64,000 bases of DNA from an uncultured archaeon (GCA_963817525.1 CAWFOU010000007.1:1024001-1088000); one strand, 5' to 3'; shown: positions 21,221-40,806, counted from the first letter of the stretch. The notes: a model not told the origin generated them from the letters alone. Program-made: numbers and translations.

Positions 21221-21706
21221 TTATTCTGACGAGGGCCTAACATGGCTCCGCTGGGCGAGCTCTTTGCCATCCTTACGCGTGTAGGGAGGGGCGCCGGGCC
21301 TCACTTTGCCAGTTCTCTCTCCCATGCGGACGAACTCGTTGATCTCCTCTACGAACTCTTCTGCGGTTATTTCGTTCTTTAGGTAGCGAAGAACGGCTAA
21401 TAGCTCTCCTCGCTTTTTCACGGTGTAGTTCACCATTTCTTCAGCCATTCGAATTACAGATGGACTTTGCGAAATGACCAGGTGCCAAGTATTGAAGCTC
21501 TCTTTCTTCCTCACCGCTCCACACATGATGCCTCTTTGAATCAGAAATTTCCGAATCATTTCAAGGTGCGGCTTCCAATTCTCATCGAAGGCGATTCTGA
21601 TTTCGATTGTGAATACATGTACGTTCACTTCGACCGTGCCGTCTCCGTCGAAGTATCCTGCGAGTTCCCTCCACCCCTTGTATGCGCGGTCAGCATTCCC
21701 GTGAAT
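21221..21706 (-). CDS. Single-motif LAGLIDADG homing-endonuclease-like protein; start uncertain
   Basis: Frame of ORF 21221-21628 stays open upstream and reads YKGWRELAGYFDGDGTVEV; TVKKRGEL motif downstream. Confidence 0.75.
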   Translation of the reverse strand: MHGNADRAYKGWRELAGYFDGDGTVEVNVHVFTIEIRIAFDENWKPHLEMIRKFLIQRGIMCGAVRKKESFNTWHLVISQSPSVIRMAEEMVNYTVKKRGELLAVLRYLKNEITAEEFVEEINEFVRMGERTGKVRPGAPPYTRKDGKELAQRSHVRPSSE

Positions 21707-21842
21707 CGATGATTCCTTATTGGCTTCCGTACTCTAACAGTTCGTCGCCCCTAATAACCGCCTCCGTGAAGTCCATGTCGAAAATCGGCATCCTTCGTAC
21801 TCCTTACATTTATAGAAGCATGAATATTTCGGGTGGCCTTGC

Positions 21843-24034: not shown

Positions 24035-24831
24035 TGCGGACCCCTGCTCTTTAGAGACACTCCGTAACAGCATAATATCGGGGCAGGAGGTGAGCCCCTA
24101 GCATGCCCGGGAGGAGCCGCTGGACCAGCGAGGAGAAGATACTCATCGTGATGGAGTCGCTGAACACCAACATCTCGCTGGCGGAGCTGTGCCGCAAGTA
24201 CAACCTGAACCCGGGCGTCTTCCGCTACTGGAAGGAGAGGTTCGTCCACTCGGGCAAGCTCGGCCTCTCCGGCTCGTCGGCCAAGGACCCGGTCAGGGAC
24301 AAGGAGGCGGAGATCAACCGGCTCAAGAAGCTCATCGGGAGCTCACCATCGCCAACGAGGCGATGAAGGAGGTCCTGAGGGGGGAGGGGAAAAAATGAGC
24401 GTGACGATCATGATGCGCAAGGGGTTGAGCCTGAGGAAGAGCCTCTCCATCGTAGGAGCCTCTCGAGGCTCGTACTACTACAAGGCCAGACGTGCGCGGA
24501 GCGACAGGGGCAGGCTACGCGACCCGTCGATGCTCACGCCGATCAAGGAGCTCGCGATGAGGAAGCCGGTGTATGGCTCGAGGATGCTAGCGGCCAGGCT
24601 CTCGAAGGAGCTGGGCAGGCCGGTGAACAGGAAGCTGGTCCAGCACGCGTTCCGGATGATGGGCTGGACGATCCCGCAGATGACAAAGAAGCAGCTCATC
24701 GGAGCGGCCCACAAGAAGCCGAAGCCCACCGCGATAGACCAGGACTGGGAGGCAGACTTCACCTACGTCTGGTGCGGCGTCGACAGGTGGTGCTACCTGT
24801 TCAACGTGCTGGACATCTTCTCGAGGGAGTG
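24035..24831 (+). mobile_element. Truncated IS3-family element (orfA + partial orfB)
   Basis: Left end TGCGGACCCCTG..AGACAC; orfA HTH (WTSEEK..ELCRKY); G4A6 slippery run at 24386-24395; orfB YGSRML, WEADFTY, LDIFSRE then break. Confidence 0.85.
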
Positions 24832-24835
24832 TCGG

Positions 24836-25303
24836 ATGGAAAGAGAAGCGAAGCGTCGGCACGTCACGCTGAATTCTCTCATCAACGCGATTCTCGCAAA
24901 ATACGACTCATTCGACAAGATTTTGGAAGGGACGAAAGCAATCCCGTTGAGCGGGGCGTTCGTCGCAGAACTCCTGGAGATCGCCTCGATAGAGCAGATG
25001 GAGAACATCGCAAAGAAGCTGGGCGCGAAGGTAGTGAGACAGAGCTTCGCCTCTCAAGGCATAGAATTCAACCTTGACAATCTGATAGAGTCCTACTTCG
25101 AGCCTCTTTCAGAGTATTCGGGCTGGTACCAGTTCGATTGGCGCCTTGCAGGCACGAGTCGCAAGCTGATCTTCACGCACTCGCACGGCGCGAAGTGGAC
25201 GGCGTTCTTGAGACGGTACTATGCCGCCATAATACGCTCGGCCACGGGAGTCGAGCCTGACGTCACATTTGAGGACGGGGTACTCACTTTCACGTGCAGA
25301 TAG
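24836..25303 (+). CDS. RHH-like regulator remnant fused in frame to IS3 orfB
   Basis: EAKRRHVTLNSLINAIL helix pair and HSHGAKWTAFL; abrupt switch from transposase sequence. Confidence 0.55.
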   Translation: MEREAKRRHVTLNSLINAILAKYDSFDKILEGTKAIPLSGAFVAELLEIASIEQMENIAKKLGAKVVRQSFASQGIEFNLDNLIESYFEPLSEYSGWYQFDWRLAGTSRKLIFTHSHGAKWTAFLRRYYAAIIRSATGVEPDVTFEDGVLTFTCR

Positions 25304-28108: not shown

Positions 28109-30067
28109 TCAGGCAGATGGTAGCTTGGGGAGGCCTATGGCCTTCCGGAGAGCGATGAACCTCGGATCGTCCCGGACTCCCTTCAGCTCATGATCGGCGT
28201 TTATCCAGATCATCCCGCCGTCGTGGGTGTCGTAGGCGACCTGTAACCAGCGAAACCCTTCGTCGACGTCCCCGAGGGCGAAACGGACCGGCGCTATCTG
28301 GTAAGGGCTGACTTGCTGCTGGACGTACTCTGACTCGACCTTTCTCAGGACCGCGCGAGCCTCTTCCGACCTCTTCATCCCAGCCAGCAGGTATGCCCTC
28401 ATAAGTTCCAACGAGCGCACCTTCCTCGGCAGCCTCCCCAGTTTCTCAAGCTCCTTCGCTGCATCGTCGATTCTCCCGCTGAGGACGTACGCCAGGATGA
28501 TGTTCGTCGCACCCCACGAAGCGAGCATAAGGGAAGGGTCCAGGTCGTTCGCCCGCTTGAACCACTCGATCGCCTTGTCGAAGTCGCCCTGGTAGTAGTA
28601 TGCCGCACCCATGTTGTGGTTCATTATCACTGAGAGAGGGTCGAGCTGGATCGCGATAGCCATCTCATTTTCCGCGTCCCGGAGGCGGTGCTGAGCTCCC
28701 AGGAAGTGAGAATACCACTGGTGGGCGGCCGAATAGTTAGGTTTCAGTTCGATTGCTCTCCTGAACTCGGCCTCCGCCCCGTCCCAGTCGTGCGAATAGT
28801 AATTGGGCACACCCGCTAGCGCGGTGTGGGCCTCGGCGAGGCTTTCGTCCAGCTTTAGGGCCTTCATGGCGAACTCCTTCGCTTTCTCAAAGTTCGGAGC
28901 AGGTTCACCCGGCCCGTTCCTCCCCATCACATTGTAGCAGTCGGCCAGCCCGGAGTAACCCAGCGCGAAGTCCTTGTCCATCTCGACGGCTTTTTCGAAA
29001 TAGGCGACCGCCTTCAGGAGTCCTTCGTCACTCCTCTCGTTCCAATAGTGCCTACCCTTCAGGTAGAGCATGTATGCCTCGGTATCCTCGGTCGGCTTTC
29101 TCTCGAGCCTGGCCCTCTCAGAACTCACTAATTTGACAGACAGATCTCCGGCTACCTTTTCGGCGATCTCGCTCTGGATCGCGAATATGTCATCCAGCTG
29201 CCTGTCATAGTTCCGTGCCCAGATGTGGCCTTCTGTGGCCGCGTCAATGAGCTGCACCGTTATCCTGACCCTGTTTCCGGCCTTTCTCACGCTTCCCTGG
29301 ACAAGGCTGCCTACGTTGAGTTCCCTTGCGATCTCCGAGATTCCCTTCTGCGTCGACCTGTACTTCATGACGGACGTCCTGGCTATCACCATGAGCCCCC
29401 GGATTCCGGAAAGCGAAGTGATGAGCTCCTCCGTCATTCCGTCCGAGAGGTACACATCTGCCGAGTCAGGGCTCATGTTGGCGAAAGGTAGGACCGCGAT
29501 GCGCTTCACGTCCAGACGAACCGGCTCGGGCTTTTCCGAGAGGCCCCACGGCATCACAGCCCTGAAAACCTCCACGGGTGTGGTGACGTTCTTCAGCTGT
29601 TTCGACCCAAGGCTCTCCAGTCGAATCTCGAACTTGTTGTCGACTTGATCATAGACCTGCCGTGTGACGCAGACTCCCCCGTTCTCAGCTAGGGATTCGA
29701 TCCTTGAAGCGATATTCACGGCGTCTCCGGAGATGTCCCCTTCAGAGGAGACCACGTCACCCAGATGAACACCGATTCGAAGGACAATCCTCCGTTCCTC
29801 GGGCACCGCAGTGTTGAGCTCCCGGACCGTCCTCTGTATGTCGTATGCGCACCTGACCGCATCGAGGGCGCTGGCAAACTCCACCATGAAGGCGTCCCCG
29901 ATGGTCTTGACCTCTCTTCCTCTGTGCCTGGCAAGAATGGGCCTCACGAGCTTTCTTTGCTCCTCGACAAGAGCGAGCGAGAGGGCCTCATTTCTTTGTG
30001 TCATCAATGTGTAGCCCACCATGTCGGTGAACATGATGGCGGCCAATCTCCTCTCCCCCAGTGACAT
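28109..30067 (-). CDS. Class III adenylate/guanylate cyclase with TolB-like and TPR domains
   Basis: AIMFTDMVGYT, KTIGDAF, GDAVNIASR, IAVLPFANMS, TPR repeats. Confidence 0.93.
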   Translation of the reverse strand: MSLGERRLAAIMFTDMVGYTLMTQRNEALSLALVEEQRKLVRPILARHRGREVKTIGDAFMVEFASALDAVRCAYDIQRTVRELNTAVPEERRIVLRIGVHLGDVVSSEGDISGDAVNIASRIESLAENGGVCVTRQVYDQVDNKFEIRLESLGSKQLKNVTTPVEVFRAVMPWGLSEKPEPVRLDVKRIAVLPFANMSPDSADVYLSDGMTEELITSLSGIRGLMVIARTSVMKYRSTQKGISEIARELNVGSLVQGSVRKAGNRVRITVQLIDAATEGHIWARNYDRQLDDIFAIQSEIAEKVAGDLSVKLVSSERARLERKPTEDTEAYMLYLKGRHYWNERSDEGLLKAVAYFEKAVEMDKDFALGYSGLADCYNVMGRNGPGEPAPNFEKAKEFAMKALKLDESLAEAHTALAGVPNYYSHDWDGAEAEFRRAIELKPNYSAAHQWYSHFLGAQHRLRDAENEMAIAIQLDPLSVIMNHNMGAAYYYQGDFDKAIEWFKRANDLDPSLMLASWGATNIILAYVLSGRIDDAAKELEKLGRLPRKVRSLELMRAYLLAGMKRSEEARAVLRKVESEYVQQQVSPYQIAPVRFALGDVDEGFRWLQVAYDTHDGGMIWINADHELKGVRDDPRFIALRKAIGLPKLPSA

Positions 30068-31102: not shown

Positions 31103-31372
31103 GCATCCCTTGGTCCCGTCGGCTTGGGGGAATAACTGGTATTCCGCTTCGATGCCGTCGACCGAGCAGACAACTGGCGTATCGCCGCAAACTGGGAGAC
31201 AAATATAACAGGTTTTGCCTCGCAGGCGAACGAAGTCTCGGCTGCTGAATCTGGCCGCGAAGAGTCCTTATCGAAAGCCTTCCGCCATCGCCACTGCCAA
31301 CATCATAAACCTGTCCGACCGGAAAGGGCCTGTTTGGGGGCGAGCCTCGCCAGCCCCCGAGGAGCCACCCTC

Positions 31373-31528
31373 TTACATCATCTTCATTTCCTTCATCATC
31401 TGGCCGCAGCCGTCACACGTCATCATCATCGACTTCATGGACATCGGTCCCATCTTCATCTCGTGACAGGTTGGGCACATCATCACTGCCTCTTCCATCA
31501 TCAACATTTTCTTATCGCTCATGGTCAT
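31373..31528 (-). CDS. 51-aa Met-rich CxxC/CxxC mini-protein (not in the ORF track)
   Basis: MTMSDKKMLMMEEAVMMCPTCHEMKMGPMSMKSMMMTCDGCGQMMKEMKMM*; SD GGGGGTGA at 31538-31545; TATA (TTATATAG) at ~31578-31585. Confidence 0.8.
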   Translation of the reverse strand: MTMSDKKMLMMEEAVMMCPTCHEMKMGPMSMKSMMMTCDGCGQMMKEMKMM

Positions 31529-31706
31529 TTTTTCACTTCACCCCCGCAGATATCCGAGCTTCCTATTCCTTGGAGACTATATAATTCCTCTTGACGATAA
31601 AATCCGAAAATTTATTCCTTGGTTATTATGATTATGAGTAAGATTTCGGCCGACTGGTTATTTCTCCGGGGAATGAGCGACGACTCGGGCCGAAAAGTGA
31701 GCCCCG

Positions 31707-39845: not shown

Positions 39846-40358
39846 ATGAGCTCTGCGAACGACTGGGGCCTGAGGTCCAAGGCGCTTCTTACAATCCTCA
39901 GCTCTCAGAGGGTCATCCGGGGAGCGATGGCGGCCAGCGCCGAGAAGGAGGGCCTCACCCTCCAGCAGTTCTCGCTCATGGGGGTCCTCTCCCGAAGGGG
40001 GCGGGTGCCGATGAACGCCCTAAGCAAGGAGCTCCGCGTGACCCCGCCCAACATCACCGGCGTGGTCGACAGGCTGGAGGCGAAGGGCCTCGTGAAGAGG
40101 GTCGCCGACCCCGCGGATAGGAGGAGGAAGGGGATCCAGATGACGGAAAGGGGGACGGTCCAGTACGAGAAGGTGCGCACCGGCTACAGCGGGCCGCTCC
40201 AGGAGTCGCTGGACACGCTGACCCCCGAAGAGCAGGAGATTCTGGTCAATCTCCTCAGGAAGTTCGTCGGGGCGATAGCCCAGAGTGAGGGAGAGGGCCG
40301 CCCGAGCGCCGACGGCTCTCGCGTCAAGCCGAGACGCGGAGCTGGCCGTACTCCATGA
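39846..40358 (+). CDS. MarR-family regulator
   Basis: LTLQQF, VTPPNITGVVDRLEAKGLV, DPADRR. Confidence 0.93.
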   Translation: MSSANDWGLRSKALLTILSSQRVIRGAMAASAEKEGLTLQQFSLMGVLSRRGRVPMNALSKELRVTPPNITGVVDRLEAKGLVKRVADPADRRRKGIQMTERGTVQYEKVRTGYSGPLQESLDTLTPEEQEILVNLLRKFVGAIAQSEGEGRPSADGSRVKPRRGAGRTP

Positions 40359-40806
40359 AGAGGTGTATGGCGCAGAAGATGGCGCAGTAGATGGGGAACG
40401 TCCCCGACTTGTCCGCGACGAAGGAGACTTTCACGACCTGCCCCGGGGCGATGGACTCCACCGTCTTGTCGAAGTAAGTGCCGACCTGGAACCCGTGGGA
40501 CTCGATGGTGTCCACGTTGCAGACTGTGATCTCGACGGTCTGCCCCTCGGCTACAGATATCACCGGCCACGCCTTGGTCGGGCCCGCCCCCTCGAGGACG
40601 CTGTCGTTGTACCCGTACTGGCTGGCTATTATGAGGAAGCCCCCCGCTGGCCTCAAGCAGCCCGCAGGCAGCTTGGCGGTGGGGAGAGGCCCCTCGGCGG
40701 TCTGGCTAGCGTGCAGGCCACCGACCAGGACCGCTGACGAGGCGACCAGCCCGGCGACCGTCAGGATGGCCAGTGTGAGGCTCGTCATGCTCGTCATGCT
40801 CGTCAT
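40324..40806 (-). CDS. Membrane-anchored cupredoxin with CuA-like site
   Basis: N-terminal TM; HGF ... GTFPIYCAIFCAIHLFM. Confidence 0.85.
   Translation of the reverse strand: MTSMTSMTSLTLAILTVAGLVASSAVLVGGLHASQTAEGPLPTAKLPAGCLRPAGGFLIIASQYGYNDSVLEGAGPTKAWPVISVAEGQTVEITVCNVDTIESHGFQVGTYFDKTVESIAPGQVVKVSFVADKSGTFPIYCAIFCAIHLFMEYGQLRVSA

Follow-up and report, generated by a model that had tools for sequence, protein, structure and literature searches.

A 51-residue, methionine-loaded microprotein with a predicted zinc-ribbon fold in acid-soil archaea

CusF, CopC/PcoC, SilE/PcoE and the Ctr1 ectodomain are Met-motif Cu(I)/Ag(I) proteins of the periplasm or the extracellular space. The Met-rich surfaces of the SRP54 M domain and of calmodulin bind protein partners, and C(P)XCG microproteins have a regulatory role. 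Proteins with more than 30% Met are very rare. [quoted passage not shown] (2012; PMC3514235), those studied there having 21–33%. MrpX of Azospira suillum is described as a periplasmic protein of 20% Met and 44% charged residues which is oxidized by hypochlorite and regenerated by Met sulfoxide reductase (PMC4436054). For Cu(I), the table in PMC7558416 lists a Kd of 5e-11 M for the thioether-type CusF, 6e-22 M for CopZ and about 1e-17 M for Csp.

The terms 'methionine-rich' and 'zinc ribbon' were not found paired in a literature search, which likewise returned no description of a Met-rich protein in Thaumarchaeota, the co-mention concerning SRP. What appears to be new in the gene presented here is a probable zinc-ribbon microprotein with an unprecedented and, to judge from comparison of its relatives, evidently selected Met load.

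The gene lies on the minus strand of the window, by which we mean the whole 64,000-nucleotide stretch of archaeal DNA that was analysed (Table 1). Its direct translation agrees letter for letter with the 51-residue sequence given in the preliminary description and contains 19 Met and 4 Cys, so that 23 of the 51 residues carry sulfur. The two CxxC motifs are CPTC (residues 18–21) and CDGC (38–41); HxMxM occurs at residue 22, MxCxxC at residues 16 and 36, MxM six times and MxxM five times. All ORFs of 30 aa or more that start with ATG, in the six frames of the 2.82-Mb genome, were ranked by Met content (n=14,094); the value here is 37%, against 18% for the next-best ORF. The binomial expectation of at least 19 ATG in 51 codons is about 1e-23, and the Met content is beyond chance. 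Lys, Glu and Asp together make up 24% of the residues, with a net charge of 0. Kyte–Doolittle maxima are 0.43 (19-residue mean) and 0.79 (15-residue mean), and in this analysis no segment was hydrophobic enough for a membrane helix, nor was there a hydrophobic N-terminal segment as in a signal peptide. The product is read as a soluble, cytoplasmic, single-domain protein, probably without an export signal.

Table 1. Features of the gene and its surrounding cassette in the window.
Feature	Position	Strand	Remarks
Met-rich Cys4 microprotein CDS, 51 aa	31373..31528	minus	ATG 31528-31526, TAA 31375-31373; direct translation
TATA-box-like TTATATA, preceded by purine-rich AGAGGAA	31578..31584	minus	56 nt upstream of ATG; putative archaeal promoter
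Shine-Dalgarno-like GGGGGTGA	31538..31545	minus	9 nt ahead of ATG
GC-rich hairpin	31336..31358	minus	14 nt past stop codon
Small GAGG..CCTC stem preceding the GC hairpin	31359-31372	minus	
Conserved cassette (promoter, ORF, hairpin)	31308..31678	minus	about 360 bp; recurs within unrelated flanks

Homologues in 17 protein clusters (42–61 aa, E from 2e-19 to 5e-8) were retrieved from 5.8 billion proteins by a word-indexed search; all are annotated as 'hypothetical' save for a 'DUF983 family' source label on two. Among the relatives as a whole, one source gives this label to P0010, P0016, P0033 and P0034. Membership of DUF983 was rejected, the window protein having no DUF983 Pfam match at E up to 1. 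In an alignment of 18 proteins, 21 columns are invariant (12 Met, 3 Cys, P19, H22, K25, G27, P28, D39, K46 and E47) and C21 is nearly so; homologues that conserve Met and Cys, whose absence would have told against the preliminary description, do exist. DNA copies were taken from four genome contigs, 16 metagenome contigs and one further genome. Over a 37-codon core, 14 distinct DNA copies use 2–4 synonymous codons at the invariant Cys, Pro, His, Gly, Lys and Asp positions. For 15 distinct copies (105 pairs, Nei–Gojobori), dN/dS was 0.09 in the sense frame at a dS of 0.81 and 1.14 in the in-register antisense frame, and the remaining frames mostly contain stops. To judge from these substitution patterns, the gene is under strong purifying selection and the ORF is a genuine protein gene.

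More distant relatives were sought with a profile against 1.84 billion representatives, which gave 14 proteins at E up to 1e-3. Six matches were left out as not belonging to the family (CxxC-repeat proteins of 321–2118 aa and a 186-aa protein matching only in its first 32 residues), and the short matches P0024 and P0028, which cover only the C-terminal half, were not aligned either. The remaining matches include short relatives with far fewer Met; one Met-poor cluster includes a 'hypothetical protein' of the DPANN archaeon Candidatus Iainarchaeum, and relatives overall span 41–61 aa. Across the 28 aligned members the Met share ranges from 11 to 42%, while the sum of Met and LIVFWYA stays roughly constant, near 18–22: it is 5+13 and 6+14 in the Met-poorest members and 19+3 in the window protein. 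Where Met-poor members have Tyr, Phe, Ile or Leu, the Met-rich members have Met, and the latter contain no or almost no Arg, aromatic residues, Ile and Phe. The N-terminal tails vary in length and sequence and always consist of Met plus Lys, Glu, Asn or Asp, with no His. By genus, the Met versions have 31–37% Met in that of the window (three genomes) and 20–25% in a second genus (two genomes). Nearly all ordinary hydrophobic residues have given way to Met within this small family, and variable tails of Met plus charged residues have been added, which brings the share to 30–42% Met.

An AF2 model built on the 28 aligned sequences has a mean pLDDT of 75.8 and consists of a short N-terminal helix, a helix at residues 29–35, strands at 13–17, 24–28 and 46–48 and β-hairpins around both CxxC motifs. 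The prediction is that the two knuckles, 16 residues apart, make up a single Cys4 site of zinc-ribbon (rubredoxin-like) type, AF2 itself being unable to predict metal binding, as PMC11241148 warns. Structural matches were all weak and none was significant (best Foldseek E 0.3, best VIA-align Z 4.1). Zinc-ribbon or rubredoxin-type modules filled almost all top Foldseek rows and many VIA rows, among them MCM, PolD, Trm1, Sirt2, HypA, TFIIE-alpha, desulforedoxin and small zinc-ribbon ribosomal proteins. The model and these fold matches agree with the zinc-ribbon reading of the CxxC pair proposed in the preliminary description. A Pfam search with the protein gave sub-threshold zinc-ribbon-type matches only; NCBIfam and PADLOC gave no match, PDB sequences nothing meaningful and the ESM Atlas a best score of 0.79 with no lead, so that no sequence relationship to a named family was found in Pfam, NCBIfam or PDB sequences. 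Identity as an HMA (CopZ/Atx1) metallochaperone was rejected: PF00403 is not among the Pfam matches at E up to 1, and that domain has about 70 aa with one MxCxxC, against 51 aa, a ribbon model and two MxCxxC here. A homodimer prediction with zinc scored 0.24 against a mark of 0.42, which gives no call either way on self-association.

The Shine–Dalgarno site and TATA box, the AT-rich upstream region and the GC hairpin that the preliminary description had assigned to the gene were all recovered. The motif (A/G)AATTATATAG(T/C)C lies at an equal distance from the start in most Met-rich loci (the window, L034, L035, L038–L042 and L049–L052), and the TTATATA element is regarded as a putative archaeal promoter. 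In the Met-rich loci the start codon is preceded by GGGGGTGA, which we take to be complementary to the 16S 3' end, or by GGAGGTGA, at matching distances in most. The GC content of the upstream stretch 31529–31650 is 36.9%, compared with 61.3% window-wide. A GC hairpin follows the stop by about 14 nt in all 11 homologous loci folded, with differing stem sequences; this recurrence is the stronger evidence, the folding energy of the 62-nt 3' stretch of the window being in itself unremarkable and no better than that of shuffled sequences (z=0.07). Taken together, the gene presents itself as a monocistronic cassette with an apparent TATA box, Shine–Dalgarno site, 51 codons and a 3' hairpin.

The cassette recurs as a unit. 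In L050 the match to the window is confined to 31678–31322 (89% identity) and the flanks differ; in L052 it runs from the upstream cyclase gene to 31308, where a tRNA-Ile gene follows; in seven relatives that lack the 51-aa gene the DNA match to the window is limited to the cyclase gene. The tRNA-Ile of L052 (993–1061, minus) starts about 90 nt after the stop of the 51-aa gene, and in L051 a tRNA-Arg (1626–1700, minus) lies about 600 nt downstream of it. The cassette may sit at integration-prone sites, as hinted by these tRNA neighbours. No flanking terminal inverted repeats of a MITE-like element were found around it. Two copies look decayed: L042 (about 880–1016) has in-frame stops ahead of the first Cys pair, possibly from a 1-nt insertion or an assembly error, and L053 (721–844) lacks the first CxxC and has Tyr in place of one Cys.

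Peat RNA libraries from two studies contributed one short contig each (178 and 151 nt, 95–99% identity). They span 31322/31346 to 31495/31496, that is, the 3' two-thirds of the ORF and the hairpin, and the contig of library X14 ends at 31322, just beyond the hairpin. The region is also present in one soil DNA run and one peat DNA run. Four of 20 listed runs were compared with the window in this way, and the small word shares of the other 16 do not enter the view of habitat. The contigs lend weak support to transcription of the gene, because they show neither strand nor ends and DNA may contaminate RNA libraries.

The gene is carried by five of 97 genomes of a Nitrososphaerales family (G000, G013, G002, G465 and G477; completeness 80–95%), with two copies in one of them, and was not found in 400 other genomes sampled from the class. 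Since only these five of the family's genomes carry it, it must be dispensable. The carriers are acid-soil and peat archaea. Acidic-subsoil genomes of Gagatemarchaeaceae and related lineages have been described, with a GC content of 54–62% given for the family (Sheridan et al., 2023), and we infer that the window genome belongs to Gagatemarchaeaceae. No match to amoA (PF12942) was obtained in the five carriers, but the control likewise matched nowhere.

No neighbour is conserved across the compared loci, and the surroundings of the gene always differ. In the second genus it adjoins a pyruvoyl arginine decarboxylase gene and is near a DUF1404/CtaG–cupredoxin fusion; it is 45 nt downstream of the fusion in G477, and in G465 the two are 1.7 kb apart on the same strand. 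Of the 97 genomes, 31 have an orthologue of the CtaG–cupredoxin. About 500 nt downstream of this orthologue, four genomes of the window's genus have another small Cys4 ORF (CPCCG ... CPAC; L113, L114, L115 and L117). A further conserved ORF, about 64 aa long (LLVLGVTE...EARNLKEFLDET...WVEIY), lies on the same strand 200–300 nt upstream of the gene in L034 (5327–5518, plus), L039, L041, L042, L049 and L051; it is not found at the window locus and matches no Pfam family, and homologues occur elsewhere in G000 (C7:1141916 and C7:779907). A class III nucleotide cyclase fused to TPR repeats is near the gene in the window (28109–30067, minus) and in both second-genus genomes (L036, 6886–8751; L060, 1902–2249); its similarity to Pycsar cyclases is weak (E 7e-6). 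F420-dependent LLM oxidoreductases recur nearby (L034, L037 and L049), in line with the multi-copy family in PMC10640624. An integrase-core/HTH_21 ORF below the Pfam cut-offs (24209–25300, plus) and a LAGLIDADG-like ORF (21224–21733, minus) lie 6–10 kb from the gene, in a region with many ORFs that have no family.

All functional readings considered here are drawn from composition, conservation and analogy. The one that we tentatively favour is that of a cytoplasmic scavenger whose Met residues would be sacrificed to reactive oxygen and chlorine species. Selection would then act on the number of thioethers per molecule; the exposed Met and the Zn–thiolate site would be oxidized first, and Met sulfoxide would be re-reduced by MsrA and MsrB, encoded elsewhere in the genome. 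The zinc ribbon would hold a protein dominated by Met, Lys and Glu folded and soluble, so that its action would be like that of MrpX, yet intracellular and on a structured scaffold. The replacement of every hydrophobic position by Met, together with tails of Met plus charged residues devoid of His, has the appearance of selection for the number of Met. The 12 invariant Met positions would also fit defined metal sites or a partner surface.

MsrA is encoded in four and MsrB in five of the five carrier genomes. G000 has one msrA (C1:738932) and three msrB genes (C7:162655, 448878 and 542658), none of them linked to the 51-aa gene (C7:1055373); both genes are common in the control genomes too, so their presence does not discriminate. 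The oxidation of Met by H2O2 is slow, and a Met sink would therefore matter mainly for hypochlorite-type oxidants, whose relevance in these soils is assumed. An oxidant sink had been named as an alternative to copper in the preliminary description; it now stands as at least as likely, by compositional likeness to MrpX, with the missing linkage to msr genes counting against it. The evidence for a role in copper handling is no stronger than that for oxidant scavenging.

A doubtful but possible alternative is a buffer or chaperone for Cu(I), Ag(I) or possibly Hg, in which the Cys4 set and thioethers would bind one or several soft metal ions. The protein has soft-metal motifs (H22-x-M24-x-M26, MxCxxC twice, MxM and MxxM), which presumably resemble the sites of CusF, Ctr1 and Atx1/CopZ, and the invariance of H22, D39 and 12 Met fits. 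HMA domains (PF00403) were found in 13 of 14 control genomes, whereas the five carriers together gave one weak match and four of them none; this near absence would leave room for a non-canonical cytosolic copper handler and, with the invariant HxMxM and MxCxxC motifs, lends the reading real support. The nearby CtaG–cupredoxin fusion of G477 and G465 points the same way, but the 51-aa gene is adjacent to an orthologue of it in only one of 30 loci scanned, and the copper theme drawn from this neighbour was rejected for that reason. Further points against the copper reading are the variable Met-rich tails without His, the presence of Met in core hydrophobic positions too, which suits capacity over site geometry, and the lack of any match to a metal family in Pfam or NCBIfam. 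To our knowledge the known Met-motif copper proteins act outside the cytoplasm, whereas this one carries no export signal. Judged by the tabulated constants (PMC7558416), a CusF-type Kd is far weaker than those of cytosolic thiolate proteins, and Met sites would thus be poor buffers in the cytosol.

The copper-type cluster that the preliminary description placed about 9 kb away reduces to one 160-aa ORF (40327–40806, minus) that falls short of the Cupredoxin_1 threshold, scoring 19.7 bits where 27 are required (E 9e-4); the ORF adjoins a MarR gene, and the genome has at least nine other cupredoxin-domain matches. With this neighbour below threshold, no export signal and adjacency to the CtaG–cupredoxin in 1 of 30 loci, the Met-based copper buffer proposed there received no copper-specific support. 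A broader form of the idea, which we consider unlikely, is a cytosolic 'methionine metallothionein': a zinc ribbon with its hydrophobic residues recoded to Met that would combine, in a single 5-kDa molecule, the thiolate site with many thioether sites and hold several Cu(I) or Ag(I) ions, or serve as a capacitor for metal and oxidant alike, in archaea nearly without HMA chaperones.

Rather improbable, too, is a regulatory or adaptor zinc-ribbon microprotein whose flexible, Met-lined surface would bind a partner, perhaps an APC-type permease or another abundant paralogous family. The 12 invariant Met positions would fit such a surface, archaeal C(P)XCG microproteins form a known class (PMC11241148), and small proteins that modulate transporters are described in the literature. 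Four loci (the window, L035, L037 and L047) have an APC permease (PF13520) no more than about 3.5 kb from the gene, and these four permeases are just 26–29% identical to each other, so that the association is not merely synteny carried along. Against this, PF13520 is expanded in the window's genus, with 22, 15 and 6 matches in G013, G002 and G000. About 20 genomes have an orthologue of the window permease (60–80% identity), but the 51-aa gene is present in just three of them, on other contigs, and nine genomes of the genus keep the cyclase–permease pair with no copy of the gene next to it. Such multi-copy permeases, gene-less orthologues and gene-less pairs weaken a permease partnership. The lack of a neighbour conserved across loci also speaks against a partner, and a single interface leaves the graded rise in Met unexplained.

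Very unlikely is a methionine or sulfur reserve, in which a costly amino acid would be stored in compact, protease-resistant form. The 23 sulfur atoms per 51 residues and the replacement of other hydrophobic residues by Met suit a store, and at one locus, L047, the gene is flanked by DsrE2, TusA and ComA-like genes. For the wider neighbourhood, a sulfur-metabolism theme was rejected, the other candidates from the NCBIfam scan being the F420-dependent LLM oxidoreductases and a YiiM-like MOSC protein. MetE-type methionine synthase genes in four of the five carriers give no sign of Met auxotrophy (a search for the MetH-type PF02574 was negative in all five), and the strict conservation of H22, K25, G27, P28, D39, K46 and E47 exceeds what a store needs. 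The sulfur-storage alternative of the preliminary description thus finds no support, with sulfur-related neighbours at a single locus and MetE in most carriers.

That there is no protein gene at all, the real feature being a His-rich antisense ORF or else a small RNA, for instance of the C/D-box kind, can practically be dismissed: an 86-aa antisense ORF (31334..31594, plus) does stay open and Rfam sR30 (RF01134) matches weakly at 31382–31433 (minus; 17.1 bits, E 0.15), but that score is far under Rfam's gathering threshold of 38 bits, Pfam gave no match for the antisense ORF, the antisense dN/dS is 1.14 against 0.09 in the sense frame, synonymous changes gather at sense third positions of invariant residues, and the His richness is a mirror effect of ATG codons, which read CAT in reverse. 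The repeated ATGATGA of the Met–Met codons mimics the C box of a C/D-box sRNA.

The graded replacement of hydrophobic residues by Met on a fixed fold offers a clean natural case of what thioether density may gain a cell, be it a redox buffer, a means of handling soft metals or a malleable surface for binding. With only 51 residues, synthesis is feasible and the rival readings are directly testable. The host group is abundant yet uncultured in acid soils, and in it a conserved microprotein that has its own promoter-like signals and is seen in peat RNA libraries is either overlooked by automatic annotation or left without a name.

Compared with the Met-motif Cu(I)/Ag(I) proteins, the window protein is alike in its MxM and MxxM motifs and in an HxMxM on a predicted β-strand, but no homology was found in Pfam and Met here also fills core hydrophobic positions. 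With the metallothioneins and Csp, as presented in PMC7558416, it shares small size, richness in sulfur ligands, potentially multiple sites and a logic of 'capacity'; theirs are many-Cys thiolate clusters, in Csp on a four-helix bundle, whereas here there are four Cys (8%) on a β-ribbon model. The account of MrpX (PMC4436054) likewise depicts a small protein composed largely of Met and charged residues with a proposed cycle of oxidation and re-reduction; it gives MrpX its own signal peptide, a yedYZ–mrpX operon with the reductase and SigF control, and no zinc site features in that description. The window protein, set beside MrpX by composition alone, has 37% Met, a Cys4 ribbon, no export signal and a monocistronic gene unlinked to msr.

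It also shares the rare class of proteins above 20% Met, where its 37% (family maximum 42%) exceeds the values of the proteins characterized by Liang et al. (2012; PMC3514235); the survey reported there chose Cys-poor proteins of more than 50 aa. The closest known kind, as we read it, are the archaeal C(P)XCG zinc-finger micro-proteins, the class described from Haloferax volcanii (PMC11241148). As set out there, these have fewer than 70 aa and two Cys pairs (CPxC ... CxxCG), and they are alike as well in a predicted single zinc-ribbon domain and a stand-alone gene. The second motif of the window protein, CDGCG, fits the class, while the first, CPTC, ends in an invariant His and not in Gly. What sets the present family apart from the C(P)XCG class is its 30–42% Met, with aromatic residues, Arg, Ile and Phe absent.
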